A stretch of 64,000 nt of DNA from an uncultured Pseudomonadales bacterium (GCA_964510525.1 CAZECE010000042.1:73272-137271), one strand, 5' to 3'. Shown: positions 2,114-52,196, counted from the first letter of the stretch. Translations and numbers: made by a program. Notes: a model not told the origin generated them from the letters alone.

Positions 2114-3464
2114 TTTTTGTGCCCCATTCTTTTGCTTCGGCGAGGGTTTGGTGTAAGTCTAATGTGGATAGCTGACGGTCTTTTAAAACGGGTTTGCCTG
2201 CTATCCAAACGTCTGTGATTTGGTTGGATTGAGCGGCGTACACCACCTGAGAGATGGGGTGATAGATGGGTTGCGTGTTGACTTGATTCAGGTCCATCAA
2301 AACCACATCGGCCAGTTTGCCAACAGCAAGGCTGCCCAGCTCTTGGTCTCGGTTGAGGGATTTGGCGGCATTTATCGTCACCATTTTAAGGGCTTCGTAA
2401 GCGGAGACGGCGGTGCTGTCGTGGTGAACGGCTTTGGCCAGTTGAGCGGCTAGGCGGGTTTCGCTGAGCAAGTCGAGGTCGTTGTTGCTGGCGGCGCCGT
2501 CTGTACCTAGGGTGCAATTCACGCCGGCTTGAGTAAGAGCACCCAAAGGGCAGAAACCGCTGGCCAGTTTCAAATTGGATTCAGGGCAGTGCACGATGGT
2601 CGCGTTTTGTTGCGCGAAGAGCTCAATTTCAGACTCATTGAGTTGCGTCATGTGCACGGCTTGCAAATTGGGGCTGATCAACCCAAGCTGCTTTAAGCGT
2701 TCGATTGGACGCAGTCCCGTGTTTTTGATCGAGTCGGCGATTTCTTGTTGGGTTTCATGTAAATGAACTTGAATGAAGGTATCTAATTCTTCGGCCAGTG
2801 TGGCAATTTTTTCAAAACTTTTATCTGTGACGGTGTAGGGTGCATGGGGTCCAAAGCCGACTTGAATCAAATCTTGGTGTTTAAAGTCATCGTGTAAGGC
2901 CAGAGTTTTGTGGATGTGTTCGTCAGCCGTTTTGGCCCAAGGGGTTTGGAATTCAATGGTTGGCGCTGCCAGTTGTGCTCGTATGCCGGCATGCAGGGCT
3001 TCCTTTGCGGTCACCTCAGGGAAAAAATACATGTCAGTGAAACTGGTGGTGCCGGATAAAATCATTTCAGCGATGGCCAGTTTGGAACCCGTTGCCACAA
3101 AGGTTTCATTGACCCATTGGCCTTCAGCTGGCCAGATGTGCTCTTCGAGCCAAGTCATTAAGGGTAAGTCATCGGCAAAGCCACGGAACAAGGTCATTGG
3201 GCTGTGGCCGTGGTTGTTGATCAACCCGGGCAGAGCCACATGATTGGGTTTATGAAGAACGTGTGTTGCTTTGAGGGTTTCGGGGACCTCTTGGCTTGGG
3301 CACAGCCCTAGAATTTTACCTTGATCAATGATTATGGCTTGTTGATCTAGGCAGGTGGGTTCGGGCGATTCCATCGGAATGGCCCAACCCACGTGAATCA
3401 CATAATCAACTTCGTGATTGACGTTGGCTAAGGGGCTAGGATTCGGTTTGGTGTTTGTTGTCAT
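2100..3464 (-). CDS. mtaD: amidohydrolase of the TRZ/ATZ family, 5-methylthioadenosine/S-adenosylhomocysteine deaminase-like
   Basis: 'LPGLINNHGHSPMTLFRG' carries the metal-binding HxH motif, and 'LGTDGAASNNDLD' is also present. The gene overlaps the ubiG start by 14 nt. I place the start at the ATG giving MTTNTKPNP (3464); the track extension to 3554 translates a palindromic repeat. Confidence 0.8.
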   Translation of the reverse strand: MTTNTKPNPSPLANVNHEVDYVIHVGWAIPMESPEPTCLDQQAIIIDQGKILGLCPSQEVPETLKATHVLHKPNHVALPGLINNHGHSPMTLFRGFADDLPLMTWLEEHIWPAEGQWVNETFVATGSKLAIAEMILSGTTSFTDMYFFPEVTAKEALHAGIRAQLAAPTIEFQTPWAKTADEHIHKTLALHDDFKHQDLIQVGFGPHAPYTVTDKSFEKIATLAEELDTFIQVHLHETQQEIADSIKNTGLRPIERLKQLGLISPNLQAVHMTQLNESEIELFAQQNATIVHCPESNLKLASGFCPLGALTQAGVNCTLGTDGAASNNDLDLLSETRLAAQLAKAVHHDSTAVSAYEALKMVTINAAKSLNRDQELGSLAVGKLADVVLMDLNQVNTQPIYHPISQVVYAAQSNQITDVWIAGKPVLKDRQLSTLDLHQTLAEAKEWGTKIGNT

Positions 3465-4321: not shown

Positions 4322-5401
4322 ATGACCACCCCGTTAAAACAGGTCTATACCGACGCTTATTTGAACGACATTGGCCAGCGCATTCAAGCCGTAGATCCGG
4401 CTTTTGAGCACAAGCGCTTTGTTAAAGCGGTGTTTGCTGAGCCTTGGGAAGCGTTAGAGCTGAAAGCCCGGATGCGACGCATCACCGAAACCTTAAAGCA
4501 GTTTTTACCCGATGATTATGATGCCGCGTTGGAGCGCCTGAAACCCGCGGCGGTCTATTTTTCTGGGTATGAGGCGATGTTTTTTCCAGACTTTGTGGGC
4601 TGTTATGGTGTTAATGAGTGGCAACGCTCGATGGTGGCATTGAATCATTTTACGCGTTATTCCAGTTCTGAGTTTGCGGTGCGACCCTTTATTGAATTGG
4701 ATCAAGAGCGCATGTTGCAGCAGATGCTGGTGTGGGCCGGGGATGAGAATGAGCACGTTCGTCGCTTGGCATCCGAAGGCTGTCGACCGCGCTTGCCGTG
4801 GGCGAGTACGCTGCCGGCGTTAAAAAAAGACCCAACACCCGTTTGGTCGATTTTAGAAACGCTGAAATCAGATTCGAGCGTTTATGTTCGAAAAAGTGTC
4901 GCCAATCACTTAAACGACATCAGCAAAGACCATCCAGATTTGGTGGTGGATCGTGCACGACAATGGTTGGGTCACAGTAAAGAAACCGATTGGATTGTCA
5001 AACATGGATGTCGGACGTTATTAAAAGCGCGTCATCCTGAAGTGTTGCAACTATTTGGTGTGGCTGGTGCGGATCATATCTCGGTAACAGATGGTTGGGT
5101 TCAGGATGAAGTGGCGTTAGGGGCTGAGTTGACATACGGTTTCACGCTTTGCTCAGAACTGGGTGAGCTAGGTAAGGTGCGCGTTGAGTTAGTGATGCAC
5201 TTTTTGCGTGGTCGTGGTCAGTACGGTCAGAAAGTCTTTAAAGTATTTGAGGGGCTTGTCAGCGATTCGAAGAAAAAAGTTGAACGCTCTTTTTCGTTTA
5301 AACCCCTAACGACGCGTCGGTATTATCCGGGGATTCAAAAGTTAGAGATTGTGGTGAACGGAGCTTCTTTGATGGCAAAAGAATTTTTGTTGGTTGAGTG
5401 A
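4322..5401 (+). CDS. DNA alkylation repair protein (HEAT-repeat, AlkD/YhaZ-like)
   Basis: 'NEHVRRLASEGCRPRLPW' and 'YVRKSVANHLNDISKDHP' are characteristic of this family, recognised by eye. Confidence 0.7.
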   Translation: MTTPLKQVYTDAYLNDIGQRIQAVDPAFEHKRFVKAVFAEPWEALELKARMRRITETLKQFLPDDYDAALERLKPAAVYFSGYEAMFFPDFVGCYGVNEWQRSMVALNHFTRYSSSEFAVRPFIELDQERMLQQMLVWAGDENEHVRRLASEGCRPRLPWASTLPALKKDPTPVWSILETLKSDSSVYVRKSVANHLNDISKDHPDLVVDRARQWLGHSKETDWIVKHGCRTLLKARHPEVLQLFGVAGADHISVTDGWVQDEVALGAELTYGFTLCSELGELGKVRVELVMHFLRGRGQYGQKVFKVFEGLVSDSKKKVERSFSFKPLTTRRYYPGIQKLEIVVNGASLMAKEFLLVE

Positions 5402-5413
5402 TGCCGAACAGTT

Positions 5414-6187
5414 TTATTGCGACTTATATTTTTTAACAACCATATGAAAATAACGCCCGGTGTATTTGTAAGGCTCTTTGTTGTTGTATCGATTTTCCAG
5501 CTTAATTAAGCCTTCAATATTTGATTTTTCTAGCGTTTCTTTTGGTAGCCAATCGTAAATGACGCGAATGCCGTATTCCCCCAAAGTCTTGTAACCCAAC
5601 TCTTGAAACCAGTTGGCTACGGTTTCAGGGTATTGCGGGTTCATTGGCGTCAGGCCTTTGCGTTTGGCTTTTTTAACGGTTTTTTCAGTCAAAATATCGG
5701 TATTGCCTTTCAATGCATTTTTGTAGACCAGCGAGTGCCGGTTATAAAACGCGAGTGAGAGGTGCCCTCCAGGCTTTAGGTTGTTCAGAAGTTTAAATAC
5801 AGTTTCTTTGGGCTCGGCTAACCATTCCAACAGGGCGTGGCACACAATAATATCGAATGTTTCTTCAAGCTCGTGAATGTGTTGAATCGGGCCATGGTGG
5901 AATTGAATGTTGCTGACACAACAAAGTCGTTGTTTGGCGCGATCCAACATGTTCTCAGACAGATCGTTTAAGACCACGTTGTGTTTCAGAGTCGCCAGCT
6001 GCTTGCTCATCTGCCCTAAACCGCCGGCGGCATCGAGTATGGTAAGAGGCGAATCTGTTTCTAAGTGGGGAATGTGCTGGCGCATTTGCTGCCACAACAA
6101 TATTTCTCTTAGCTGGCCTTTTTTAGAACCGTAAATACGCTGCTCGAACTTTTCAGCAAGTGGGTCGAAGTTTCGGTCTTGGAGCAT
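5414..6187 (-). CDS. cmoM: tRNA uridine 5-oxyacetic acid(34) methyltransferase CmoM (SmtA-like)
   Basis: The N-terminus 'MLQDRNFDPLAEKFEQRIYGSKKGQLREILLWQ' closely parallels E. coli CmoM/SmtA. SAM motif 'ILDAAGGLG' is present. Confidence 0.8.
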   Translation of the reverse strand: MLQDRNFDPLAEKFEQRIYGSKKGQLREILLWQQMRQHIPHLETDSPLTILDAAGGLGQMSKQLATLKHNVVLNDLSENMLDRAKQRLCCVSNIQFHHGPIQHIHELEETFDIIVCHALLEWLAEPKETVFKLLNNLKPGGHLSLAFYNRHSLVYKNALKGNTDILTEKTVKKAKRKGLTPMNPQYPETVANWFQELGYKTLGEYGIRVIYDWLPKETLEKSNIEGLIKLENRYNNKEPYKYTGRYFHMVVKKYKSQ

Positions 6188-6205: not shown

Positions 6206-6282
6206 TGGTAGCTACGGGTGGACTTGAACCACCGACCCCAGCATTATGAATGCTGTGCTCTAACCAGCTGAGCTACGTAGCC
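6206..6282 (-). tRNA. tRNA-Met (anticodon CAU, elongator type)
   Basis: The reverse complement GGCTACGTAGCTCAGCTGGTTAGAGCACAGCATTCATAATGCTGGGGTCGGTGGTTCAAGTCCACCCGTAGCTACCA folds as a cloverleaf and is near-identical in its arms to E. coli metT. Confidence 0.95.
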
Positions 6283-6393: not shown

Positions 6394-6431
6394 GCTGTAT
6401 TTGCGTGAATCTGGGTGATTAAGGTTAACAA

Positions 6432-7760
6432 TTGGCTGTGTTGGTGGTTAAATTCATTTTTTTAAACGGATGTCGCAGGTTGAAAAGTATGCAGTGGATG
6501 ATGGGTAAAGTAGGGCAGCGGTTTTTGCGTCCTGCCGCAGTTGGGGCTGGATTGGGGGGTGTCTATGCGGCTTCTTCAGGTGATTCAAATGTCAGTGGTT
6601 CAAACAAGCGTTTGGAGGCGGCTTCTTTTCATCAGGTGCCTAAAGAGACGCTTAATTTGGATCGTCTAGGTGCGACTGGGGTAACACGGTCCCATTTAAA
6701 ACAGGCAACGGTTTCTGAGCGATTACATCAGGTGGAGATCGTTGTTTTTACGGGAGGAGGGGATAACCGGTTGGCACGAGGGTTCGTCAATGAGCTTAAA
6801 GCTATCATGCCGGGTGTCGAGATTCGTGAGGGGAGATGTACGGTTGGTAAATTCAGTGATGGTGAAACTCAAATCCATGTTCATGAAAGTTTGCGCAGCC
6901 CAGTGGTTGATCCTCATCAAAAAAAAATTCCGTTTATCTTTCAAGAGCTGTCCCCGAACCCCAATGATCGATTGGCCGAATTAGAGCTTATGGCGGATGG
7001 TATTCGTCGCTCGGGTGGGGAAAATATAACGGCGATTACCCCTTATTTTGCTTATGGGCGGGCAGATCGTCGTCCGGCTTCAGCCAAGGTGCCGATCAGC
7101 GCGCAAGTCATTGCCAATAGAATTTCCAATGTTGGTATCAAGCATTTATACACCGTTGATGTGCATGCGCCTCAAATCGAAGGTTTTTTCCCAAAAGAAA
7201 CTCGTTTTGAAGACCTTTATGCCAGTAAAGTGCTTTTTAGGCATCTTAAAAACAAGATGCTTGGCAAGCAATTATCGTTAGACTCTACCGTGATCGTTTC
7301 CCCTGATTTGGGCGGTGGGCAAAGGGCGCGTAAGGGGTACGCTGAGCCGTTGAATTTGGATTTGGTGCAACTTGAGAAAAGGCGTCCTGGCCCAAATGTG
7401 GCGGAAGTGTTGAATATTATCGGTGACCCTGACGAGAAAGATTGTGTGATTGTTGATGATTTATCGGATACATCGGGTACCTTGATAAAAGCGGCTGAGG
7501 CCTTAAAGGCAGCAGGGGCACGATCCGTTCATGTGCTTTTTACTCATCCTGTGTTGTCGGGTCCCGCCATTGAGCGTCTAGCGTCGGCACCTATTGAGAC
7601 TCTCGTGTTTACGGACACCATCCCGTTGTCAGAAGCGGCTAAGTCAAACCAGCAATTTATGGATAAAGTGGAAGTGGTGAGTGTCGCTCCTTTAATTGCT
7701 GAGGCGGTCATGCGCTCGCTCACCGGGCGTTCAATCAGTGCGATGTATAAGCGCGATTGA
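6432..7760 (+). CDS. divergent ribose-phosphate diphosphokinase (PRPP synthetase) paralogue, start uncertain
   Basis: Aligns along its length with the canonical Prs of this window: 'KFSDGETQIHV', 'ITPYFAYGRADRR', 'TVDVHAPQIEGFF', 'VIVDDLSDTSGT'. The maximal ORF starts with TTG at 6432. ATG 6486 or GTG 6732 are alternatives, and GTG 6732 aligns with the usual Prs N-terminus. Confidence 0.8.
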   Translation: MAVLVVKFIFLNGCRRLKSMQWMMGKVGQRFLRPAAVGAGLGGVYAASSGDSNVSGSNKRLEAASFHQVPKETLNLDRLGATGVTRSHLKQATVSERLHQVEIVVFTGGGDNRLARGFVNELKAIMPGVEIREGRCTVGKFSDGETQIHVHESLRSPVVDPHQKKIPFIFQELSPNPNDRLAELELMADGIRRSGGENITAITPYFAYGRADRRPASAKVPISAQVIANRISNVGIKHLYTVDVHAPQIEGFFPKETRFEDLYASKVLFRHLKNKMLGKQLSLDSTVIVSPDLGGGQRARKGYAEPLNLDLVQLEKRRPGPNVAEVLNIIGDPDEKDCVIVDDLSDTSGTLIKAAEALKAAGARSVHVLFTHPVLSGPAIERLASAPIETLVFTDTIPLSEAAKSNQQFMDKVEVVSVAPLIAEAVMRSLTGRSISAMYKRD

Positions 7761-7817
7761 TGGGGGCTGGTTTTGTTTCATTAATAAAGGCATAGCAATT
7801 TAGGTGTAATCAGTAAA

Positions 7818-8951
7818 GTGTTTAACAATGTGTTTTCTTTAGGGCTGCGACAAGGGGTGAGGGCTGAAGTGTGTGCTGCGGCCTCAATAATTTTGTTTGA
7901 TAGACGCGAGCCTGTTGTCAATGAACCTCTGTTATTGATAAAAAAAACGGCTTTATCACAGAAGAAAATCATTCACTTTTCCGACATGCGAAAAGGGGAT
8001 CTTATTGTCAGGCAGGATAAAATTCTCTCGAATGCCAGCAGTGACCACTTAATGATTTTTGCCGGTGGTCAAAAGCCGATTATTCATGCCAAGGTCGATG
8101 GTCGGGTGCGCGGTGTGATTCGCCAATCGTGGAATACGATGGTGAAAGCTGAGAAGGAAGACCCTGTTAAGCACGTGGTTTATCGGATAACAGACAGCGT
8201 GTTGGCTAGGGAGATGCTTCGATTCGCTGTGGTGTTTTCCTTAGAAACGCATTCTGAACAGTTTAATCAATTAGTACGTTTCAGTAATCAACATGGCTTG
8301 AGGGTTGATGATCATAGTGTTGTTCTCCCGACGGCCTACTCGGTAAAGAAGTTGGCTATCGCGAGAAGATATACGGAGCAAACTGCGATTCCAGGGTTTC
8401 CTGAATCCAAAAAGGTTGGCGTGTTTAGAGCGTTAAAGTCGTTGGTAAGAGCGGAGGGGGATCATGCGAAACGTGTTTTTGGTACTAGAGTGTTGTCTTC
8501 GAAAGGTACCACCTGTTCTGAGTTTGTGTTGCTTTGTTTGCAAGGGGCTGTCTTGAAACGTTTTTTGCAACAACACGGTTGCAATGTTCCTGAATGTATT
8601 GAGTCTGCACTAGGTCATTCAGGTGTGTCTTCTAAGCGTCAGCCTAAAATAGTGTCGAAGGATTTGGTGGCTGCTGACACAGGCTTGGTGATCAATCCGC
8701 GACTTAATGTGCAGCTTAAAGAGCTGATCGTGTTTTTGGAGCAGCTGATAAAATTAAAGGGGTTTGATGAAACATTTAATGGTTTGGATATGGATCCTAG
8801 AGAGGCGACGGTTCGATCTCTCATTCGCCTGATGTTGTTTCATCAACGGGTGTGTTATGTGGGGGAGTTGGAGGTTCACTCAGAGCCTGAGGATCGCGCC
8901 CCAAAATCGTCAGAAAGCCATCCTCATCCAAATACCCGATATCTTCCGTGA
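7818..8951 (+). CDS. hypothetical protein, possible circularly permuted papain-like (His..Cys) fold
   Basis: 377-aa ORF with a GTG start (ATG at 7986 is an alternative). Ordered motifs are 'RKGDLIV', 'SDHLMIFAG', 'IIHA', 'GTTCSEFV'. I recognise no family with certainty. The last 131 nt overlap the convergent aas ORF. Confidence 0.5.
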   Translation: MFNNVFSLGLRQGVRAEVCAAASIILFDRREPVVNEPLLLIKKTALSQKKIIHFSDMRKGDLIVRQDKILSNASSDHLMIFAGGQKPIIHAKVDGRVRGVIRQSWNTMVKAEKEDPVKHVVYRITDSVLAREMLRFAVVFSLETHSEQFNQLVRFSNQHGLRVDDHSVVLPTAYSVKKLAIARRYTEQTAIPGFPESKKVGVFRALKSLVRAEGDHAKRVFGTRVLSSKGTTCSEFVLLCLQGAVLKRFLQQHGCNVPECIESALGHSGVSSKRQPKIVSKDLVAADTGLVINPRLNVQLKELIVFLEQLIKLKGFDETFNGLDMDPREATVRSLIRLMLFHQRVCYVGELEVHSEPEDRAPKSSESHPHPNTRYLP

Positions 8952-11900
8952 TAAACCATTGACGGCCATCCAGCATGACGGTTGGCTGGGTTTGAGTTGA
9001 ATTCTGGGTTTGCGGTGGATTTACGTACCCGAGCATAATTTGGGTCCCGCCTATTAAAATGACCCCGGCCTCACCGGTGTTTTTTTCGGCTTGAGTAATT
9101 GGATCGATGATCTTAAAGCTGGTGCCGGGTAGCGGCATGCCGACGGTGCCTTTTTTGCCGCCCAATTGCACCTTCCAGGTACGGGTATCCAGGGCATCTG
9201 GCAGATTGACGCTGGCGATCGGTGTGGTCTCTGTGGTGCCATAGCCTTCCATGATGGGTTTGTTAAATTTTTGCTCGAAGGCTTGGCGAGTATTGTCGGT
9301 GAGCTTGTGGCCGCCTGAAATCACCAGGCGTAACGGCTGCAGCATTAAGGGGTGAATGCGTTCTTCGCGTGCAAGTTTGTCCAGCATCGCGGGTGTGGAG
9401 CACAGCAGGGTCGTATTGTTTTGTGTGACTCGTTTGGCTAAGCCTTCTCCATCCATGGGGTCGGGGTGGCAGACAATGGGTAGGCCGCAGAGCAGGGGCA
9501 TGAATTGATTGACCGTCATTGCATAAGCATGAAAACTGGGCAATGCCGCCATTGTGATGTCCTGTTCTTGCAGGTTCAATACATCGGAGGCTTGTTTGGC
9601 GTTGGCCATGATATTTCGGTGGCTTAATCGAATGGCTTTGGGTAAATCGGTGGTGCCACTGGAAAATACCAGAGTAGCGCAGTCGTTGGCGTGTTTGGCG
9701 CGATTGAAGAGCACATTCAGAACCGCTGACGGGGTGAGTGTGACGGCTATTTTCATCCACCGTTGTGTTTGTGGTGTGAACTTGGTTTGAAAGTGGTCCA
9801 GTATCACCCATTGCACATCCAGTTGATCGAGTGGATAGCCTTGTTCCAGTAGCGTGTTAAAAAAAGCTTGAGTGGTACAGAGGTTTTTGAGTTGGGTGCT
9901 TTGAATGGTGTGTTTGAAGGCTTTAAAGCCATAGGTGTAATTTAAGTTGGTGATGGTTTTGCCGGCAAATAAGGCGGCCATGTTGGCTGTCATCTGGGTT
10001 GAGCTGGTGGGTAATACGAAGCCCAGCAAAGAATCCTTGACGGTGCTCCTTATCTGTCGAGACAGCCATAAACTTTGCGCTAACATCGCGCGATTTGAAA
10101 TTTTGGTCGTATGGTTGGTTTCTGAATGTGTGGCTTCCAAGGTTGCGGTTTTACTTAAAGCGCCTTTGGCTGTTTTGAGCCAGGCCGCGGGTAGAGTATC
10201 AAGAGAGTGGGCGTATTGCTCCCAAGCATCGATTGAGAGATCAAACACTTGTTGTTTTAAGCGATCCGGTGGGGTGTCTTTGGGAACGGGCTGGCCGAAG
10301 GTAACCACCAAGTCGCGGGTAATCCCGGCTTGGTTTAACGATTGAGTGTGAGTCGAGGCTCTGGAAAATTGGCTGCCCCACAAGCCTCGAAGGTAAAAAG
10401 GCACAATTTGCACGGGGGCTGAAACCTTTTCAGTGGCTCTGAGGTAACCATGCCGAAATTCGGCTAAATGTCCGGTGCGGCTGATTTTTCCTTCGGGAAA
10501 TAAACACACGGCTTCCCCGTTTTCCAGTAAGGCCGTGATGTCGTCAATCGCTTTTTGGCTGTTTGGGCCTTGCTCGATTGGAATACAACCCATCAGTCTC
10601 AGAAAACCGTTGAGATACCAGCGGTCGTAAATGGATTTAATCATCACAAAGCGAATGGGTCTGGGGCAGGCAATTTGCAAAATAGCCCAATCGATCCAGC
10701 TGATGTGGTTGCCAAGGAATAAAACCGGGCCTTTTTCTGGGATGTGCTCAACGCCTTGGGTATTGACTCTGTAATGCTGTGTGAGTAACGCGGTAAAGAC
10801 AAAACGGATCAAGCTTTGAGGGATGCGATACACGGTATACAAGCAACCAACGCAGGCGACAATGGCAATAAAGTACAGCAGCCATAACGTATTAATGTTA
10901 AGAAGAGCGAGTACTACTGTCAGTGTTAGAAAAGCCAGCATGGCTAACGTTTGTATCCAGTTGGTGAGTGCTATGATGCTGCCTCGCTCACTGTCGCTGG
11001 CGTTAAATTGAATCAGGGCATTCAGTGGTACGATAAATAGGCTGCCAGCCACGCCAATCAAAAAGAAGGTGAATGCTTGGGTGGCGGTATCAATAGCGTT
11101 GGGCAGCCAAAACAAACCTAATGTCACGCCAAGTGCGCCTAATGGAATCAGCCCGGTTTCGATGTGAGAGCGTGACCACCGACCGGCCAATACGGCGCCT
11201 ATCGCAATGCCTATGCCGCTGGCAGCCATGGCGCCTTGGATGGCCATTGTGTTGGTGATGCCAAATTGACTTTTGGCGTGCGCAGGGAAGGCGGCGAGCA
11301 TGACTTGCCCAACCGACCAAAAAACAGAGAGTCCAATGATGGACAAACGAATGGTCTGGTGTTGGCTGAAAATGTGCAGTTTATCGCGCATCAATTGACC
11401 GCGTTTATAGGCTTTCCAATCGAACCTGGTTTTTTTAGGAGGGGACTCTAATGTGGGTAAACGATAAATCAGTGCCAGTTCAATCACACTGTTAAAGATC
11501 AAAAACCAACCGACTGGTGCGATCCCTCGAATAACATCGCTTTCTTGTGCCCAGTTGGCATCAAACCGGCTTTCAAAAAACCAGGAGAACAGCCCTGTTG
11601 CGGCGAGAATTGCGGTGATGCTTGCACTCTGCGCTAAGCCATTGGCTTGAGCTAGGTTGTCCTTGCCAAATAGGGGGGCTAAATAGCTCAGTTTGGCGGG
11701 GCCGTAAAAAGCCGATTGAATGGCAAGCACTAACGTGAGTGAGAAGGCGGCCCAAAACCAGCCTTGGTAATAACAATAAGTAATGCACAAGGCGGTGCCA
11801 AAAGCGACCCAGCCGGTGAAACGCATGACGTGGTTTTTGGGGGATTGGTCAGAGATAAAGCCTGCTGGGGACATTAAGAGGACAAAAGGCAGCAAGATAA

Positions 11901-12060
11901 GCGCGTTTACGATTGCGGTTAAGATGACTTGTGTTTGATCATCGTAGATTTTAAAAATGGTGTTCTGGATGATGATCTTATGGCCAACGTCAATCAGAGC
12001 GTTTAAAAAGATCACGGTTAGAAAGGCGATGGCGCCATGCGTTTTGAGTAGTTTATTCAT
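8821..12060 (-). CDS. aas: fused LplT-like MFS transporter / lysophospholipid acyltransferase / acyl-ACP synthetase (Aas); adenylation domain ends at the hinge
   Basis: The first ~410 aa are polytopic membrane protein. Then comes HX4D acyltransferase 'FLGNHISWIDW ... FPEGKISRTG', then an AMP-binding domain 'FSSGTTDLPKA', 'EGYGTTETT', 'TEDIGYLDEDGFLTILGR'. The C-terminal subdomain (A8-A10) is absent. Confidence 0.85.
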   Translation of the reverse strand: MNKLLKTHGAIAFLTVIFLNALIDVGHKIIIQNTIFKIYDDQTQVILTAIVNALILLPFVLLMSPAGFISDQSPKNHVMRFTGWVAFGTALCITYCYYQGWFWAAFSLTLVLAIQSAFYGPAKLSYLAPLFGKDNLAQANGLAQSASITAILAATGLFSWFFESRFDANWAQESDVIRGIAPVGWFLIFNSVIELALIYRLPTLESPPKKTRFDWKAYKRGQLMRDKLHIFSQHQTIRLSIIGLSVFWSVGQVMLAAFPAHAKSQFGITNTMAIQGAMAASGIGIAIGAVLAGRWSRSHIETGLIPLGALGVTLGLFWLPNAIDTATQAFTFFLIGVAGSLFIVPLNALIQFNASDSERGSIIALTNWIQTLAMLAFLTLTVVLALLNINTLWLLYFIAIVACVGCLYTVYRIPQSLIRFVFTALLTQHYRVNTQGVEHIPEKGPVLFLGNHISWIDWAILQIACPRPIRFVMIKSIYDRWYLNGFLRLMGCIPIEQGPNSQKAIDDITALLENGEAVCLFPEGKISRTGHLAEFRHGYLRATEKVSAPVQIVPFYLRGLWGSQFSRASTHTQSLNQAGITRDLVVTFGQPVPKDTPPDRLKQQVFDLSIDAWEQYAHSLDTLPAAWLKTAKGALSKTATLEATHSETNHTTKISNRAMLAQSLWLSRQIRSTVKDSLLGFVLPTSSTQMTANMAALFAGKTITNLNYTYGFKAFKHTIQSTQLKNLCTTQAFFNTLLEQGYPLDQLDVQWVILDHFQTKFTPQTQRWMKIAVTLTPSAVLNVLFNRAKHANDCATLVFSSGTTDLPKAIRLSHRNIMANAKQASDVLNLQEQDITMAALPSFHAYAMTVNQFMPLLCGLPIVCHPDPMDGEGLAKRVTQNNTTLLCSTPAMLDKLAREERIHPLMLQPLRLVISGGHKLTDNTRQAFEQKFNKPIMEGYGTTETTPIASVNLPDALDTRTWKVQLGGKKGTVGMPLPGTSFKIIDPITQAEKNTGEAGVILIGGTQIMLGYVNPPQTQNSTQTQPTVMLDGRQWFITEDIGYLDEDGFLTILGRDPQALSEPPTPPHNTPVDETTSGE

Positions 12061-12153: not shown

Positions 12154-12723
12154 TTGCAAAGGACCATTTATTCGACGCCGATTGTAAAACACTTTTTTTA
12201 CTTTGTGTCTTTGATTAGCTTAAAGCTCGCTGGTTGGAAAGTGGAAGGGCGTCCCCCTGAGGAAAAAAAATACGTGCTGATTGCGGTGCCCCATACCACG
12301 AATTGGGATTTCCCGATCACCTTGGCCTTGGCGTTTTTGTTTAATATGAAAATCTACTGGCTGGGTAAGGCTTCACTGTTTAAGTGGGGGCTGGGCCCGA
12401 TTATGCGTTGGTTGGGGGGCATTCCTGTTGAGCGTTCTTCTTCGAATAATCTCGTTCAAAAAATGATTGATGCTTACAATGCAGCTGAAGAAATGGTTGT
12501 GACAGTATCAGCGGAAGGTACGCGAGCTAAGGTGAATCGTTGGAAAACCGGGTTTTATTATATTGCTCAAGGAGCAAAAGTGCCGATTGCTCGAGGGTTC
12601 TTGGATTACAAACGTAAAATCGGTGGCTTTGGGCCGACGTTTTATCCAACCGGTGATTTCCAATTGGATATGGCGAACATCAAGGAATTTTACATCAAAA
12701 AATTTGGCCCCAGTGTGGCTTAA
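12154..12723 (+). CDS. lysophospholipid acyltransferase family protein (PlsC-like)
   Basis: HX4D motif 'PHTTNWD' and 'VSAEGTR' block. TTG start in the track. Divergent from lplT-aas. Confidence 0.8.
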   Translation: MQRTIYSTPIVKHFFYFVSLISLKLAGWKVEGRPPEEKKYVLIAVPHTTNWDFPITLALAFLFNMKIYWLGKASLFKWGLGPIMRWLGGIPVERSSSNNLVQKMIDAYNAAEEMVVTVSAEGTRAKVNRWKTGFYYIAQGAKVPIARGFLDYKRKIGGFGPTFYPTGDFQLDMANIKEFYIKKFGPSVA

Positions 12724-28143: not shown

Positions 28144-29106
28144 TTAGATTACTGAGTAATCAGCTTCAAACATGGCGCTTAAAGATTCTTCGTTGTTGAT
28201 TCGGCGGACTGATTCAGCTAGCAGCGCCGATAAAGTAACCTGGCGGATTCTACTACACTTTTGGGCGGCTTGGGAGAGTGGAATGCTGTCAGTGACGACC
28301 AGCTCATCCAGCTCAGAGCTTTCAATGTTTTTGATTGCGTTGCCGGAGAGGACAGGGTGGGTGCAAAAAGCCAATACTTGTTTAGCGCCTTCTTGTTTTA
28401 AGGCGGTAGCGGCGTTGCACAGGGTGCCTGCGGTATCTACGATGTCATCCACTAGGATGCAAGCCCGGTTATTGACTTCACCAATGATGTTCATCACTTT
28501 GGATTCGTTGGCATGAGAGCGCCGTTTATCAATTATCGCCAGATCGCAGTCATTAAATTGTTTGGCAAATGCTCTGGCCCGAACCACGCCGCCGACATCA
28601 GGGGATACAATCACAGGATTTTCATAGTTGCATTTTTCAAGCTCTTGTAAGAGCACGGGGGTGCCATAAACGTTGTCGACAGGGATGTCGAAGAAGCCCT
28701 GTATTTGATCGGCGTGCAAATCAACGGTTAATACTCGATCAATTCCGACCGTCGTAATCATGTCAGCGACCACTTTAGCGCTGATCGGGACTCTGGCTGA
28801 GCGGACTCGTCGATCTTGTCTGGCGTATCCAAAATAAGGAATGACGGCCGTGATGCGGCCTGCTGAGGCGCGTCGCAGCGCGTCTGCCATTACGAGGAGT
28901 TCCATTAGATTGTCGTTGGTTGGGGCGCAGGTGCTTTGAACGAGAAAGACATCATTGCCGCGGACATTGTCGATAATCTCGACGGTGGTTTCTCCGTCGC
29001 TGAACTGGCCAACATTGGCTTTTCCCATCGGGATATGTAGATAGTGGGCAATCTTTTTGGTCAGCTCTGGGTTGGCGTTACCTGTGAAGACCACCAGCTT
29101 AGTCAT
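28144..29106 (-). CDS. prs: ribose-phosphate diphosphokinase (canonical PRPP synthetase)
   Basis: '[11 protein letters not shown]', '[11 protein letters not shown]', '[11 protein letters not shown]' and '[12 protein letters not shown]'. Confidence 0.97.
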
Positions 29107-37899: not shown

Positions 37900-39372
37900 A
37901 TGAGTGTGAGTAGTACGCAAAAACAGGCTTATTTCGAGCGTTGGCAAACCAGTGAAGCCTTAGCTGAAGCGATGATTCCTCTGATTGGTCAATTGTATCG
38001 AGAGCGTAATGTGGTCACTAATATTTACAGTCGGCCCATTGTGAATCGCTCGGTGATTTCGATTATCAAGCATCACAAATTTGCGCGGCAGCTACAGAAA
38101 GCAGAACTGAAAGTTACGGACACGTACCCTGTTTTAGAGGCATTAACAAAACTACCCTTGGCCCCTAGTCGAGTTGATATTGGAAAATTAGCGGTTAAAT
38201 ATCAGCGCTTTGGTGAAGGCAAAACGGTTGAAGAATTTGTCAAAACTGAAGTATCTGAAGCTTTGGAAGGTGGCGATGCACCGAATTTCGTCTCTCAACC
38301 CATTGTGCTTTATGGGTTTGGTCGAATTGGACGTTTATTGGCGAGAATTTTGATTGAAAAAACAGGTGGTGGCGCTGGATTACGCTTGAAAGCTATCGTT
38401 GTGCGTAAAAAAGACGATATGGATTTGTTTAAGCGAGCCAGTTTGTTACGCCGTGATTCCGTTCATGGCAGCTTTGAAGGTACGATCAGTGTTGATGAAG
38501 AAAATAATGGTTTGATTGCCAATGGTAATTTTATTCAAGTGATCTACGCCAACAGCCCCGCAGAGATTGATTACACGGCCTATGGTATTGATAACGCCAT
38601 TATTGTTGATAATACGGGCAAATGGCGTGACCGTGAAGGGCTCGGTCAGCACTTGGATTGTCCTGGTGCGAGTCAGGTGGTCTTAACGGCGCCAGGTAAA
38701 GGGGATATCAAAAATATTGTTTACGGTGTTAATGAAGGGTTAATCGACGGTGAAGACCGTATTTTGTCGGCGGCTAGTTGTACGACTAATGCGATTGTGC
38801 CTGTGTTGAAAGTCGTTAATGAGCTGTACGGTATTGAAGCGGGTCACGTTGAAACGGTTCATTCTTACACAAATGATCAGAATCTGATTGATAATTTTCA
38901 CAGTGGTAATAGACGTGGTCGTAGTGCGCCGCTCAATATGGTGATTACCGAGACAGGTGCCGCTAAAGCAGCTGTCAAGGCGTTGCCTGAATTAGCAGGT
39001 AAGCTGACAGGGAACGCGATTCGTGTGCCGACGCCCAATGTTTCTTTGGCTATTTTAAGTTTGACTCTGGATAAGTCGGTTGGCAAAGAGCAAGTTAACG
39101 AAGCTTTAAGGGAAGTTTCTTTGGATTCCCCCTTGCGTAAACAGATTGACTACGTAAACTCTCCGGAAGTGGTTTCTTCTGACTTTGTTGGGTCTCGGAG
39201 AGCCAGTATTGTTGATGCTCAGTCGACTGTTGCCAATGGTCGTCATTGTGTTTTGTATATTTGGTATGACAACGAATTTGGTTACAGTTGCCAAGTGATT
39301 CGTTTGTTGCAAAAACTGTCTGGTATTACATATCCTGCCTTTCCGAAGGATATGTCTGCAGTTGCTGTTTAA
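37900..39372 (+). CDS. gap: glyceraldehyde-3-phosphate dehydrogenase, long form (~490 aa)
   Basis: 'LYGFGRIGR' and 'ASCTTNAIVPVLK' (catalytic Cys), with a ~130-aa N-terminal extension as in the Pseudomonas long GAPDH located next to nqr. Confidence 0.9.
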   Translation: MSVSSTQKQAYFERWQTSEALAEAMIPLIGQLYRERNVVTNIYSRPIVNRSVISIIKHHKFARQLQKAELKVTDTYPVLEALTKLPLAPSRVDIGKLAVKYQRFGEGKTVEEFVKTEVSEALEGGDAPNFVSQPIVLYGFGRIGRLLARILIEKTGGGAGLRLKAIVVRKKDDMDLFKRASLLRRDSVHGSFEGTISVDEENNGLIANGNFIQVIYANSPAEIDYTAYGIDNAIIVDNTGKWRDREGLGQHLDCPGASQVVLTAPGKGDIKNIVYGVNEGLIDGEDRILSAASCTTNAIVPVLKVVNELYGIEAGHVETVHSYTNDQNLIDNFHSGNRRGRSAPLNMVITETGAAKAAVKALPELAGKLTGNAIRVPTPNVSLAILSLTLDKSVGKEQVNEALREVSLDSPLRKQIDYVNSPEVVSSDFVGSRRASIVDAQSTVANGRHCVLYIWYDNEFGYSCQVIRLLQKLSGITYPAFPKDMSAVAV

Positions 39373-47977: not shown

Positions 47978-49237
47978 TTAAGGCAGTAACCGCAAAAAGC
48001 GATCTACTGAAATTACCCAGGCTGTTTCGTCGTATTTTTTAAATATGCCGCCATGCTGAATGACTTGTAGGATGGGTACCTTGAGTGATTTAGAAAATCG
48101 CAGTGTTGAAGACGAAATGGTTTTATTTGATAATTTTGCTTCAACCAAAAGAGTAGGTTGGTCATTAAGTGTGATTAAAAAATCCACCTCTTTTTGGTCA
48201 AAGTCTCGTACATAGAAAACTTTTGCTTTTCCCCACCCTTGTTCGGTCCATATGTGGCATGCTCGATATAGTTGTAAAGCCAAAAAATTTTCGAAAATGA
48301 TTGCATCGGTTTTGCAGTAAGCCCAATCCATAAAATACACTTTTTCTTCTTTTTTCACAGTGCGAGCAAGGTTTTTGCTCCAGGGTTTGATGGAGAATAT
48401 CAGCCACAGTTTTTTCAGCTGGTTTAGGTAATTTTTAATTGAGGGGTGCGAGGTTTCAACATCACGTGCTAATGAGGCAATAGATAAAGGGCTGCCTATG
48501 CGCTCAGGCAGTAGTTGCATCATACGCTCAACGGAATCGATGTTTTTGATGTTAGTGAGGTCACGTAAATCTTCGTGCAGCAATAGAGAGATATAATCTT
48601 GATGCCATTTAAAAGAAAAGCGTTGTGAGGCTCTAAAGAGGGGTTCTGGAAAGCCTCCGAATGTTAATAACTGTGCGATATGCTCGGTGTATTCATTGTT
48701 ATCAGCTGTGTTTTTTAGTCGTTCAAATAGCTGTGTTGCCGGTTGTTGCCAATCTGCTTTGCTGCACAACCATATGTCGGAAAGTGGGGTTGATGCCAAC
48801 TCAGAAGCTGAGAAGGGGAAAAGGCTAAAATGAGTGTAGCGTCCTACTAAAGAATCTCCCGATTGCCGAAAGAGATTTAAGCGGGCGCTACCCGTTACGA
48901 AAATACGGTGTCGATGTTCAATAGAATCAAAAGCCCCTTTTAGAATATCTTTCCATTGTTGCCGTTTGTGGATTTCATCAAAAACGATTAAAGAGGGTTG
49001 AGCAGGGTTGATATCCTGCATAAAAAAGAAGGGGTTTTCATTGTAAGCGCGCCTGATGCTTGGGTTATCCCAATTATAGTAATGACCTTGATAGGCCTGG
49101 GATAACATATGTTTAGAAAAGGTGGTCTTACCAATTTGCCGCGGGCCTGATAAAAATACCATTTTATTGGTGATTAGTTCAGGATCGTCAATATATGATT
49201 CAATTTGACGCTGTTCCGTTAGTCCATTGTTTTTCAT
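47978..49237 (-). CDS. AAA+ ATPase with C-terminal PD-(D/E)xK-like domain (COG1373 / AAA_14 + DUF4143 type)
   Basis: Walker A 'GPRQIGKTT', Walker B 'LIVFDEIHK', and C-terminal 'DFDQKEVDFLIT...LLVEAKLS' (D...E-x-K nuclease-like motif). The gene is visibly AT-rich. Confidence 0.75.
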   Translation of the reverse strand: MKNNGLTEQRQIESYIDDPELITNKMVFLSGPRQIGKTTFSKHMLSQAYQGHYYNWDNPSIRRAYNENPFFFMQDINPAQPSLIVFDEIHKRQQWKDILKGAFDSIEHRHRIFVTGSARLNLFRQSGDSLVGRYTHFSLFPFSASELASTPLSDIWLCSKADWQQPATQLFERLKNTADNNEYTEHIAQLLTFGGFPEPLFRASQRFSFKWHQDYISLLLHEDLRDLTNIKNIDSVERMMQLLPERIGSPLSIASLARDVETSHPSIKNYLNQLKKLWLIFSIKPWSKNLARTVKKEEKVYFMDWAYCKTDAIIFENFLALQLYRACHIWTEQGWGKAKVFYVRDFDQKEVDFLITLNDQPTLLVEAKLSNKTISSSTLRFSKSLKVPILQVIQHGGIFKKYDETAWVISVDRFLRLLP

Positions 49238-49291
49238 CAGATATTTTATGATTGGTTTTCGTGTAAATTAAGTATATCTATGAAATTAACG

Positions 49292-49323
49292 CGTGCAAAT
49301 TAAATATATGTTAATTTTGCACG
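49292..49323. promoter_or_regulatory. imperfect 32-bp palindrome upstream of the AAA+ ATPase gene
   Basis: cgtgcaaatta - aatatatgt - taattttgcacg, located 55-85 nt upstream of the start at 49237. Its role as an operator is inferred. Confidence 0.3.
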
Positions 49324-49359
49324 GATTTGGGGCGGTTTTTTTGTGTGTGAAATAATAAA

Positions 49360-49390
49360 GGCCAGAAACGTTGAGCTTCTGGCCTTTTTA
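49360..49390 (-). terminator. hairpin terminator downstream of ppa (bidirectional-looking)
   Basis: Stem ggccagaa / ttctggcc with a 9-nt loop. It is flanked by a T-run on the plus side and TTTATTATTT on the minus side. Confidence 0.6.
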
Positions 49391-49407
49391 AATGTGCGGC
49401 GCTGAAA

Positions 49408-49932
49408 TTATTGCGCGGCTGCAATCGATTTTTCAATTTCAGTTTTAGCGGCAGCGGCGTTTTCCCAGGCGTCAACTTTAACCCACTTGCCGGCTTCTAA
49501 ATCTTTGTAGTTTTCAAAGAAATGCTGGATTTGTTTGATCAGCAGTTCGGGTAAATCTTCAATTTCTTTCACGTCTTTATAAAGTACGGTGAGCTTTTCG
49601 TGAGGTACGGCCAATAGTTTTGCGTCTTTACCGGATTCGTCGCTCATTTGCAGCACACCGATCGGGCGGCAGCGAATGACTGAGCCTGGCGCCACAGGAT
49701 AGGGGGTAACGACGAGTACGTCTAATGGGTCGCCGTCTTCAGATAAAGTATTTGGGATGTAACCGTAGTTGCAGGGATAGAACATTGGGGTGGCCATGAA
49801 ACGATCAACAAACAGGGCGTCACTGTCTTTATCGATTTCGTATTTGATGGGCGCATGATTGGCGGGGATTTCGATGATTACATTGATGTCTTCGGGCGGA
49901 TTTTTGCCGGGAGAGATGGTTTGATAGCTCAT
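49408..49932 (-). CDS. ppa: inorganic pyrophosphatase
   Basis: '[19 protein letters not shown]' and '[23 protein letters not shown]'. Confidence 0.96.
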
Positions 49933-49969
49933 AATGGGCGTCCTAGATATTTATTTAAAGAGGGTAATA

Positions 49970-50046
49970 TGGCGGGCCTGGCAGGACTCGAACCTGCAAC
50001 CCTCGGCTTCGAAGGCCGATGCTCTATCCAGTTGAGCTACAGACCC
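49970..50046 (-). tRNA. tRNA-Arg (anticodon UCG)
   Basis: The reverse complement GGGTCTGTAGCTCAACTGGATAGAGCATCGGCCTTCGAAGCCGAGGGTTGCAGGTTCGAGTCCTGCCAGGCCCGCCA folds as a cloverleaf with anticodon loop CTTCGAA. Confidence 0.9.
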
Positions 50047-50150
50047 AATGATTAGACCCGTTGTTGTGTTTGTTAAATGTGTCCAACTCTGTATTTAGAA
50101 CACGCGATGATACTGTAATGGGTTTTATAAGCAAGTGAATCTTTAATGCT

Positions 50151-50474
50151 TCAGTGTTTATTTTGATCAAAGAAGACCTGGCCGTGGTTTTTGATGTGCT
50201 CCAATAAGGCTTTCTCTTCAATTTGGCGTTTGAGTGATAAATCAATGGTGTAAGGCAAATTTAAATCATCTAACTCAACGTTTAATTTCATTAGGTTTGA
50301 TGAGGGAAACTCGCTGCTAATAATGGTGAGATCGATGTCGGAGCCATTTCGAAAAGTGCCTTTCGCTCTAGAGCCATAAATAATGACTTGTTCAATATCT
50401 GGGTGTTGTTCAAAGACATGGCAGATCTTATTAATGGTATTTTCATTCAAACCGAAGCAGGCTAAAGAGTTCAT
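50151..50474 (-). CDS. minimal nucleotidyltransferase (MNT, HI0073-like)
   Basis: 'IYGSRAKGTFRNGSDIDLTI' is the GSx(n)DxD NTase motif. The start overlaps the upstream stop (TAATG). Confidence 0.85.
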   Translation of the reverse strand: MNSLACFGLNENTINKICHVFEQHPDIEQVIIYGSRAKGTFRNGSDIDLTIISSEFPSSNLMKLNVELDDLNLPYTIDLSLKRQIEEKALLEHIKNHGQVFFDQNKH

Positions 50475-50890
50475 TATTTTGCGTCACTTAAGGTTTCAAG
50501 TTTGGTGCTGAGTTGAGCAAACATGGGATAATACTGGTGAATGATCTTGTTATTGATTTCTTCGGCTGTTTCCTGATTGTATGCGTGGGTAGTGATGTTG
50601 CGACTTAAGATGGATTCCATCCAGGCTTCGCCGTCTTCAATTAAGTCAGCAGTGAAGGCTGCACGAAAGGCGTCTCGGCTGCCAGTGATGTTTGAGTTTC
50701 CTTGGTAGGCGAAGTAATCTTTCAATACCTTCCAGGCCAATTCATGGGTCATTTCAAAGGCTTGGATCATGCCCTGTTGTTCCATGATATTGAGCTCTCG
50801 TTTGTTGCTTTCAGCGACCATTGAGCCCAGATTCGTTAAAGCATTTTTATAATGTACGAACCGCTGCTGCCAGCGGACTTCTTCAGCCAT
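50474..50890 (-). CDS. HEPN-domain / nucleotidyltransferase substrate-binding protein (HI0074 family)
   Basis: Start placed at MAEEVRWQQRF (50890). 'SRNITTHAY' is the Rx4H HEPN motif. It is paired with the MNT gene. Confidence 0.8.
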   Translation of the reverse strand: MAEEVRWQQRFVHYKNALTNLGSMVAESNKRELNIMEQQGMIQAFEMTHELAWKVLKDYFAYQGNSNITGSRDAFRAAFTADLIEDGEAWMESILSRNITTHAYNQETAEEINNKIIHQYYPMFAQLSTKLETLSDAK

Positions 50891-51057
50891 GATTGATCCC
50901 TCTATCTTCTCCCGCTCTATGTTTTTATCTGAGCTTTTTCTTCTGAGCTTTTTCTTGCTTTGGCAAGTAGGGCAGATAGTAATGCAGTCGTAGAGCATTG
51001 ACCAGTTTTTGTCATGAACAGCTGATAGCTAAGTAATTGAAAAACTTATTATTCCTC

Positions 51058-51086
51058 TTGTGGAGGTAGCAAAAGATGCGTACAGT
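51058..51086 (+). promoter_or_regulatory. candidate rnpB promoter
   Basis: TTGTGG (51058-51063), 17-nt spacer, TACAGT (51081-51086), placed 7 nt before the predicted RNA 5' end. Confidence 0.45.
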
Positions 51087-51093
51087 GCGCCTC

Positions 51094-51471
51094 GAGTTGG
51101 CTAAGCAGTCGCTTCAGGTGGTTGTGTTTTCTTCGGAGAATGCTTCGGGCCTGGAGAGGAAAGTCCGGGCTCCATAGGGCAAGGTGCCAGGTAACGCCTG
51201 GAAAGCGCGAGCTTATGGAAAGTGCCGCAGAAAATATACCGCCCATGCTTATTTATATAAGTGTGTGGTAAGGGTGAAATGGTGCGGTAAGAGCGCACCG
51301 CGCATCTGGCAACAGATGTGGCAGGGTAAACCCCACCGGGAGCAAGGCCGAATAGGATCCCTTTGACACGGCCCGTGTTGGGATCGGGTAGGCTGCTTGA
51401 GGCATGGTGCGAATCATGTCCCAGATGAATGACTGTTCACGACAGAACCCGGCTTATCGGCCAACTCATCA
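51094..51471 (+). ncRNA. rnpB: RNase P RNA, bacterial type A
   Basis: GAGGAAAGTCCGGGCTCCATAGGGCAAGGTGCCAGGTAACGCCTGG and ...GGTAAGAGCGCACCG...ACAGAACCCGGCTTATCGGCCAACTC match universally conserved rnpB blocks. The 5' GAGTTGGC pairs with the 3' GCCAACTC. Confidence 0.93.
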
Positions 51472-51561
51472 TTTCTGATTTTTGATCTGTAGTCCTAAGT
51501 CTGTGTTTTTATTGAGGTGTATTCACACCAGTTTTTTCTGTTTACTGTAAATTTGTCTGGA

Positions 51562-51590
51562 TTGACACCTTTTGGGTCGCGCCTTAAGGT
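51562..51590 (+). promoter_or_regulatory. candidate Pmra promoter of the dcw cluster
   Basis: TTGACA (51562-51567), 17-nt spacer, TAAGGT (51585-51590). Confidence 0.45.
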
Positions 51591-51628
51591 TCGCTTCTGT
51601 GGTTTTTTGAGGAAAAAAAAGTAGAGAA

Positions 51629-51654
51629 GTGGGGGATTGTGGGATTTTGGTGGG
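51629..51654 (+). promoter_or_regulatory. MraZ operator: three GTGGG direct repeats
   Basis: GTGGG at 51629, 51639 and 51650 (10-11-bp spacing), 45-70 nt upstream of mraZ. This matches the TGGGN direct-repeat operator described for E. coli MraZ. Confidence 0.6.
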
Positions 51655-51698
51655 AATGAGTTGGCAATGTTGGTATGTAAGCTGGGTGAGATTTAACC

Positions 51699-52157: not shown

Positions 52158-52196
52158 AGGAGGTCAAGCAAAGTAGTAGTGAGCCAGTGAGGCTGT

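Follow-up and report, generated by a model that had tools for sequence, protein, structure and literature searches.

A strongly diverged phosphoribosyl pyrophosphate synthase paralogue and a candidate permuted papain-like protein beside a shortened aas gene in an uncultured Pseudomonadales bacterium

Do two adjacent genes that share a strand form a functional unit, or do they simply lie next to each other? The question is raised by a 64,000-nucleotide stretch of DNA from an uncultured Pseudomonadales bacterium (GCA_964510525.1, CAZECE010000042.1:73272-137271), hereafter the window, in which two plus-strand open reading frames (ORFs) are found between a tRNA-Met gene and aas. The first, at 6432-7760 (442 aa), encodes a divergent paralogue of class I ribose-phosphate diphosphokinase (Prs), which we call PrsL; the second, at 7818-8951 (377 aa), follows after a gap of 57 bp and encodes an orphan protein with permuted papain-like motifs of the NlpC/P60 superfamily. 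An earlier note on this DNA had taken the pair for a horizontally inserted module of nucleotide or ADP-ribose metabolism. The most economical reading of the data presented here, to which we would give a probability of roughly 0.55, is that PrsL and the orphan are two unrelated lineage-specific accessory genes lying side by side, and not a demonstrated module. Both genes would have been left between tRNA-Met and aas by a rearrangement in which aas also lost its 3′ end; the first would be a strongly diverged class I phosphoribosyl pyrophosphate (PRPP) synthase serving as a probably deregulated isozyme, and the second a rare permuted papain-like cysteine enzyme with a predicted His77/His90/Cys233 triad. 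As no terminator is predicted between them, the two may be co-transcribed, but nothing points to a pathway in common.

The PrsL–orphan pairing is unique to this genome and is not conserved: none of the approximately 10 genomic contexts of orphan homologues that were examined has a Prs-like neighbour, so that the two-gene cassette proposed earlier does not recur. Three further public assemblies (L001-L003) show the same arrangement, aas junction included, at an identity of at least 99.87%, which excludes an assembly chimera. One of the three comes from marine-biofilm metagenomes (PRJNA438384), and no single-nucleotide polymorphism (SNP) was found in PrsL or the orphan gene among the three same-species contigs.

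PrsL as a probable second PRPP synthase

The catalytic core of PrsL (6732-7757, plus strand) is collinear in alignment with residues 4-315 of E. coli Prs. It matches the Pfam profiles Pribosyltran_N, Pribosyltran and Pribosyl_synth at 79.5, 39.4 and 67 bits, all above the cut-offs, and TIGR01251 at 268 bits (cut-off 113), and it scores 296.4 bits against the gammaproteobacterial-type NCBIfam model PRK01259, for which the cut-off is 297. The protein also aligns end to end with solved bacterial Prs structures (best 6nfe, E 2e-71). The window thus does hold a second Prs homologue, as had been stated, in addition to the canonical resident prs (28144-29106, minus strand), which adjoins tRNA-Gln. 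The motifs VIVDDLSDTSGT, HAPQIEGFF and YGRADRR were correctly read, as was the alignment of GTG 6732 with the usual Prs start. The segment YARQDRR, altered to YGRADRR in PrsL, had been called the PP-loop; it is instead the regulatory flexible (RF) loop (PMC9232217, PMC13586617).

PrsL shares 42% identity with the resident Prs, and no protein from other species among 5.8 billion clustered proteins reaches more than 47%; compared with the same protein set, the resident Prs reaches about 71-74%. By neighbour-joining, the terminal branch of PrsL is 0.65 as against 0.18 for the resident enzyme (about 3.7 times), its distance to the resident Prs is 0.93 versus a median of 0.83 to other gammaproteobacterial Prs, and in 100 bootstraps it was never the sole sister of the resident Prs. 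These distances and bootstraps rule out that PrsL is a recent internal duplicate of the resident prs; its origin would be either transfer or an old paralogue. The codon usage of the core is native (codon score 0.158, genome mean 0.165).

In an alignment including E. coli Prs, whose numbering is used here, PrsL keeps R96/D98/R99/R100, and the substrate-binding or catalytic residues D170/G172/G173 and D220/D221/D224/T225/T228 are invariant in all sequences. Every residue binding ribose 5-phosphate (R5P) is also kept. The likeness to class I Prs (E. coli Prs, PDB 7XMU; PDB 6NFE) extends over the two-domain architecture, the FSDGE flag, H131, the SPDxGG loop, the KRR loop (K194/R195/R196), the DDxxDTxGT loop, and the C-terminal helices with R302 and SxS (S308/S310). 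Since the catalytic residues are intact, PrsL is most likely catalytically competent and makes PRPP from ATP and R5P. It differs from class I Prs in an identity of only 42-47%, in four insertions (7, 8, 2+6 and 4 aa) and in a set of private changes in or near the RF loop (A95G, Q97A, V101P, R102A, R105K and E133P), as well as in an N-terminal extension of about 80 aa; unlike the usual Prs, it is found in addition to a normal prs, and its branch in the tree is very long. R102 and E133 of E. coli Prs have roles in allosteric site 2 and in ADP/AMP regulation via the RF loop (PMC9232217). Because PrsL carries R102A and E133P, Q97A within the RF loop, and its 8-aa insertion next to the site-1 arginine, feedback control by nucleotides has probably been escaped or altered, which would make PrsL a differently regulated second isozyme.

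The extension (about 81 aa, 6489-6731, plus strand) has no homologue and no counterpart in any aligned Prs. Public gene calls begin PrsL at ATG 6489 (423 aa), whereas the longest ORF starts from TTG 6432. The extension is rich in Gly, Ala, Ser and Leu, with a net charge of +5. Its in-frame codon score is 0.088, the other five frames ranging from -0.12 to -0.33, where coding windows of this size have a mean of 0.175 and a 5th percentile of 0.074, and by calculation the 100 stop-free codons upstream of GTG 6732 have a chance of about 0.6% at this composition. Given the open frame and the in-frame score, the extension is probably translated. A signal peptide or membrane anchor was considered and rejected because the hydropathy is too low for a transmembrane helix; the maximum Kyte–Doolittle value over 15 residues is 1.11, with no clear transmembrane segment in the extension. 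A signal-like 'VYA/A' (from ATG 6489) and a lipobox-like 'LNGC' (from TTG 6432) were read by eye alone and are not relied on. As to the start, a sigma-70-like promoter match (TTAACA, 18 nt, TAAATT) at 6425-6454 overlaps the first codons of the longest ORF and, if used, would favour ATG 6489. TTG 6432 has the better Shine–Dalgarno sequence (TAAGGT, 6 nt upstream) and would add the hydrophobic N-terminus 'MAVLVVKFIFLNGC'. A search of the region upstream of PrsL for riboswitches or other RNA elements with Rfam gave only the tRNA.

The earlier note had also pointed to NARP1, whose ADP-ribose diphosphokinase, Adps, is Prs-like. Adps proteins are about 280 aa long, have lost the C-terminal α11-α12 module, have a pyrophosphate (PP) loop remodelled for the ATP donor (Cys215-Ser220) and are paired with Namat (PMC13586617). 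PrsL shares with them the fold of PRPP synthases (PRPS) and the acceptor-site Asp and His common to Prs and Adps (PMC13586617). Compared with these published features, however, PrsL retains the C-terminal module to its last residues, including R302 and S308/S310, and has a canonical DDLSDTSGT loop that has not been remodelled. No Namat-like gene adjoins it, its neighbours being tRNA-Met and the orphan, and the orphan has no phosphoribosyltransferase (PRTase) or Namat-like match in Pfam, PHROG or PADLOC. PADLOC gave no defence match for the pair beyond a chance match to a PRTase loop, the sole PHROG match is the generic Prs family, and in the phage collection PrsL is matched best by ordinary prs genes, with an identity of 43% at most. 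With both published signatures absent, no Namat neighbour and no PADLOC match, the reading of PrsL as an Adps/NARP1 enzyme is not supported, and neither is the suggested defence module.

The orphan gene and its family

The length of the orphan ORF (7818-8951, plus strand, 377 aa at the longest, from GTG) and its spacing of 57 bp had been given correctly, but the likely start is GTG 7869 (360 aa), which is used in public annotations and is preceded by GAGGG 5 nt upstream; from there, about 38 residues precede the point at which other family members begin. A word-indexed search with the orphan finds only itself. With phmmer run exhaustively over 1.84 billion representatives, seven distant homologues came up (E 2e-6 to 8e-4); five others, hypothetical proteins of Paraburkholderia among them, were gained with a profile search. 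Homologues were also confirmed by tblastn, and the searches of 1.8 and 5.8 billion proteins gave a family of 13 members of 263-377 aa, none of them annotated. No viral or plasmid relatives of the orphan were found. The family core comprises residues 57-352 (7986-8873, plus strand) and ends before the aas junction.

The motifs RKGDLIV, SDHLMIFAG, IIHA and GTTCSEFV follow one another in the order reported, with the predicted catalytic His before the Cys (C233 lies 156 residues after H77). Invariant in 13 of 13 members are G60, D61, H77, K86, G99, S104, R123, R204, A205, R211, G230, C233, S234, Q242, A244 and G349; H90 is kept in 12, the other (P0129) having Glu. On the plus strand, the GD motif (G60, D61) is encoded at 7995-8000 and the predicted catalytic residues H77, H90 and C233 at 8046-8048, 8085-8087 and 8514-8516. 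The codon score of the core is 0.114, just under the 5th percentile (0.120) of coding windows of the same length, and every other frame is negative. From the remote homologues and the invariant GD, His and Cys-Ser residues, the ORF is a real gene of a real, very rare and unannotated family, and not the spurious ORF for which it might have been taken.

The proposal that the orphan resembles the permuted NlpC/P60 proteins is borne out by profile, hhalign and model evidence that is weak but consistent in direction. The orphan matches positions 40-87 of 105 of NLPC_P60 over its residues 45-98 with E 0.013, below the Pfam threshold; this region holds both His residues, and C233 falls outside the match, 135 residues beyond its C-terminal end. 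Two other family members match NLPC_P60 (best E 0.0018) and a single one matches Peptidase_C92, likewise sub-threshold. When the family was compared by hhalign with E. coli YiiX and YaeF, the top matches were two collinear local alignments pairing His with His (GD...His to GD...SH, P 0.0053) and Cys with Cys (KGxxCSxF to CSEFV, P 0.0023). Single-sequence AlphaFold2 was useless, with a predicted local distance difference test score (pLDDT) of 32; the alignment-based model (pLDDT 65, predicted TM-score 0.68) has five N-terminal strands bearing the GD motif, which lies on strand 6-10, and both His; after these five strands, a long helix (177-196) begins with the Cys. The permuted NlpC/P60 architecture has an N-terminal sheet with the GD motif and a Cys at the N-terminus of a helix (PMC3142127), and the model, though of moderate confidence, is in line with this in that its Cys starts a helix after the N-terminal sheet. 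Foldseek against viral models placed a giant-virus 'permuted papain-like amidase' and a 'lecithin retinol acyltransferase' among the top eleven, neither significant, and the family profile found among PDB sequences only a spurious syntaxin match. Taken together, these lines make it quite probable that the orphan belongs to the circularly permuted papain-like (NlpC/P60) superfamily.

The permuted clades have been linked to lipid-directed function (PMC12994826), and the characterised members, namely YiiX/BcPPNE, LRAT/PLAAT and, among type VI secretion system (T6SS) toxins, Tox-Act1 and TseH, act on lipid acyl groups (PMC12994826, PMC3142127). By analogy with these, the most likely activity of the orphan would be the cleavage or transfer of an ester- or amide-linked acyl group of a lipid-like substrate. 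In layout it resembles the YaeF/YiiX type, with which it shares a GD motif, a His, a polar third residue 13-15 positions later and then a distant Cys-Ser, placed by the model at a helix N-terminus, the family's CSEF/CSQF resembling CSEFV of YaeF and the hhalign matches being collinear. Unlike that type, however, the third residue is mostly His and not Glu, no conserved Tyr was identified, the scores are sub-threshold, and the family has about 85 residues of helical insert separating the sheet from the Cys helix, a helical C-terminal region of about 120 residues and no signal peptide. LRAT/PLAAT (H-RAS-like suppressor) proteins have the same His...Cys order, a small or acidic residue and then Phe after the Cys, and a weak Foldseek match to a protein annotated as Marseillevirus LRAT, but there is no detectable sequence match, and the orphan has no C-terminal membrane anchor and far larger helical inserts. 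To Tox-Act1 and TseH, permuted NlpC/P60 T6SS effectors with phospholipase activity, the family can be likened from their description in the His-then-Cys order and in one homologue that lies beside PAAR and toxin-like genes, with downstream genes that look like immunity candidates; most members, including the copy in the window, differ in having no T6SS context and no adjacent immunity candidate.

This homologue (P0126), the best-scoring one, is located in a co-directional array with a PAAR gene (E 1.9e-25) about 1.25 kb downstream, a Lipase_3 protein and a DUF6861 protein that matches Tox-REase-5 near the threshold. The array (L085; JGI metagenome 3300044684, contig Ga0466966_0001881, 384-11470) comprises about 15 mostly unannotated co-directional genes, among which are the PAAR gene (5678-5965) and genes for a two-helix membrane protein, a DUF6795 protein, the class-3 lipase, a tetratricopeptide-repeat (TPR) methyltransferase, the DUF6861 protein, a 223-aa protein with a weak match to Peptidase_C58 (YopT-like) and two paralogues (about 211 and 227 aa); the whole has the look of an effector/immunity island of T6SS type in which undescribed families abound. 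Another homologue (P0129) is followed by a protein with a lipoprotein-type signal. In Paraburkholderia-type genomes, a conserved four-gene cluster with no Pfam match was observed (L084 7092-11003, L087 3004-6642 and L091 1233-4315), encoding proteins of about 212-275 aa, 272 aa (the orphan family), 215 aa and 366-408 aa. The remaining homologues are solo genes among housekeeping genes, and the genes downstream of the homologues are not homologous between loci. Within the window, no PAAR, VgrG or T6SS genes were found among the scanned ORFs and no immunity-like gene follows the orphan, the downstream gene being the convergent aas. By analogy, the family may include interbacterial toxins in some lineages.

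The aas junction and the surrounding chromosome

On its right, the pair meets aas (8821-12060, minus strand), which encodes a fusion of LplT, acyltransferase and acyl-ACP synthetase, matches Pfam MFS_1, Acyltransferase and AMP-binding, and covers positions 3-1040 of the 1147 of NCBIfam PRK08633. Its product is truncated to 1079 aa, where relatives have 1149-1236 aa, yet the gene keeps an intact homologous ORF of 1055 codons. Each of the 160 Aas relatives retrieved matches the protein only from residue 1 to about residue 1055; the relatives themselves continue for some 95 residues past 'ILDRYSRFAKIAGE...', through the 'GSGKTDF' lysine motif. The window Aas ends with 'ILGR' plus 24 unrelated residues, encoded by 8821-8895, and has none of the subdomain that closes the adenylate-forming domain on the C-terminal side, which reaches from the hinge behind 'ILGR' to 'GSGKTDF'. 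Adenylate-forming enzymes need this subdomain; the synthetase half of Aas is probably inactive, and the transporter and acyltransferase parts may still work. By alignment and by tblastn with the C-termini of relatives, homology breaks at position 8896, and no remnant of the missing C-terminus was found anywhere in the window. The earlier note was right that aas loses homology near the end of the pair, but the break does not coincide with it, for it lies 55 bp inside the orphan ORF: the orphan and aas overlap convergently at their 3′ ends by 131 bp (8821-8951), and 8896-8951 is genuine aas sequence, antisense, read as the last 18 codons of the orphan. From the alignments, the junction is the scar of a deletion, an insertion or another rearrangement, and no other finding speaks as strongly for the segment being secondary here. 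Near aas there is also a gene for a PlsC-like acyltransferase (12154-12723), so that, by coincidence or not, a lysophospholipid-repair gene adjoins both a predicted lipid-acting papain-like enzyme and a PlsC-like acyltransferase.

On its left, the segment is flanked by tRNA-Met (CAT anticodon; 6206-6282, minus strand; found by ARAGORN, Rfam tRNA 69.6 bits), where it lies on the 5′ (promoter) side of the tRNA gene and not at its 3′ end. By Pfam and NCBIfam scans, the rest of the 64 kb is ordinary core chromosome, with mupP, ubiG, a TRZ/ATZ-family hydrolase gene, sodB and cmoM on one side and the PlsC-like acyltransferase gene, recQ, the prs-rplY-pth-ychF block, dnaX, the nqr operon and the dcw cluster on the other. 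The GC content over both genes is 0.45-0.50, like that of the flanks, without compositional anomaly; ORF, Pfam and NCBIfam scans found no integrase or transposase among the adjacent ORFs, and the segment borders carry no convincing repeats, direct or inverted. Of the horizontal insertion claimed, what stands is that the genes are lineage-specific and that the aas junction is a scar, but compositional anomaly, flanking repeats and mobility genes are all absent.

Other features of the window were observed in passing. The few SNPs that separate the window from the other assemblies of this species cluster within some 80 bp of the gene for the TRZ/ATZ-family hydrolase (3232-3315 and 3506), with about 10 differences, half of them non-synonymous, against only 2-3 in the remaining 15 kb; the pattern suggests a short tract of recombination or a hypervariable patch. 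Among the core genes, a 753-aa ORF (17207-19468) has no Pfam or NCBIfam match and a 359-aa ORF (4322-5401) only a weak precomputed match to DNA_alkylation. A glyceraldehyde-3-phosphate dehydrogenase homologue (37900-39372, 490 aa), in which the NAD-binding domain begins only at residue 135, is the second housekeeping-type enzyme in the window with a long N-terminal extension. Finally, an AAA_14/DUF4143 ATPase gene (47978-49237) lies beside tRNA-Arg (49970-50046), after which some 2 kb devoid of ORFs of at least 180 aa precede the dcw cluster; this region (47978-52197) is perhaps a small patch, accessory or non-coding, beside a tRNA gene.

Neighbours or partners

That PrsL and the orphan are unrelated accessory genes must be set against a number of points that weigh against this reading or parts of it. 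Their close spacing on the same strand with no predicted terminator would fit an operon, and hence a functional link. The RF-loop changes of PrsL, for instance Q97A, could affect donor binding and not just regulation. The nearest aas relatives in the genome and metagenome contigs are at most 53% identical and have no neighbouring gene in common with the window, and are too distant to show the empty site. As regards the fold of the orphan, all of its Pfam matches are below threshold, the hhalign probabilities are just 12% and 7%, and the model is of middling confidence (pLDDT 65). When Foldseek was run with the model against PDB, no match with E <0.6 was obtained. There is also no conserved Tyr for the oxyanion-hole position in the 40 residues before C233, the residues conserved there being R204, A205, R211, K229 and G230. 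As regards a toxin role in the orphan family, just one of about 10 homologue contexts is T6SS-like, and no immunity-like or T6SS genes were found among the ORFs scanned in the window.

The alternative that survives best, while still unlikely, is that the orphan is an interbacterial, lipid-targeting permuted NlpC/P60 toxin like Tox-Act1 and TseH, which would have lost its immunity gene and delivery context with the aas deletion, and that PrsL is unrelated to it. T6SS toxins of this superfamily have been published (PMC12994826), the best-scoring homologue sits in the array with PAAR, Lipase_3 and REase-toxin-like genes, where the gene downstream of it has a paralogue, and the lipoprotein-signal protein next to another homologue is typical of periplasmic immunity proteins; marine biofilm, the source of this DNA, is a competitive habitat. 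However, most homologues are solo genes in housekeeping surroundings, the family has no fusions to PAAR, Rhs, VgrG or MIX, no T6SS genes were found among the ORFs scanned in the 64 kb, and the downstream genes of different loci are not homologous to each other.

Less probable is that the locus is decaying and that PrsL, the orphan or both are relics under relaxed selection with no current function. The loss from Aas of a subdomain that adenylate-forming enzymes need, the position of the orphan stop codon inside antisense aas sequence, the PrsL branch about 3.7 times that of the resident Prs, and the orphan codon score just below the 5th percentile would all be in line with decay. Against this, the ORFs are intact over 423 and 360 codons, all catalytic residues of PrsL and all family-invariant residues of the orphan are kept, the conserved core of the orphan ends before the junction, and the codon usage of PrsL is typical of the genome.

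We consider it improbable as well, and slightly more so, that the two form a functional two-enzyme module in defence, counter-defence or as an effector pair, in which PrsL would be retuned to another substrate or would flood the cell with PRPP and the orphan would act on its product or on a protein target. The genes share a strand, and the gap between them is 57-108 bp depending on the start, with no terminator predicted in it. Both are unique to this lineage, both proteins carry N-terminal extensions absent from their families, and the RF loop and neighbouring residues of PrsL are changed. Nevertheless, the published Adps signatures are absent from PrsL, there is neither a Namat-like partner nor a PADLOC match, PrsL keeps every R5P-binding residue, and in the roughly 10 contexts surveyed a Prs gene is nowhere found beside an orphan homologue. 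Least credible of all is a new conflict module in which Q97A, R102A, E133P and the extension make PrsL a deregulated or re-targeted pyrophosphokinase, which as an effector might drain ATP or modify nucleotides, and in which the orphan processes PrsL or uses its product; if real, such a conflict system would be without any counterpart described so far.

Under the preferred reading of two unrelated neighbours, the main value of re-examining the locus is that the defence and NAD reading has been removed, and no new defence or NAD-related system is reached. The orphan defines a very rare unannotated family, by which the circularly permuted NlpC/P60 group is apparently enlarged. In PrsL one would have a naturally occurring bacterial PRPP synthase without the E. 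coli-type contacts of allosteric site 2 in which the catalytic residues are kept; feedback-resistant Prs variants are used to raise the yields of PRPP-derived products (PMC9232217), and PrsL may help the study of how PRPS paralogues diverge.

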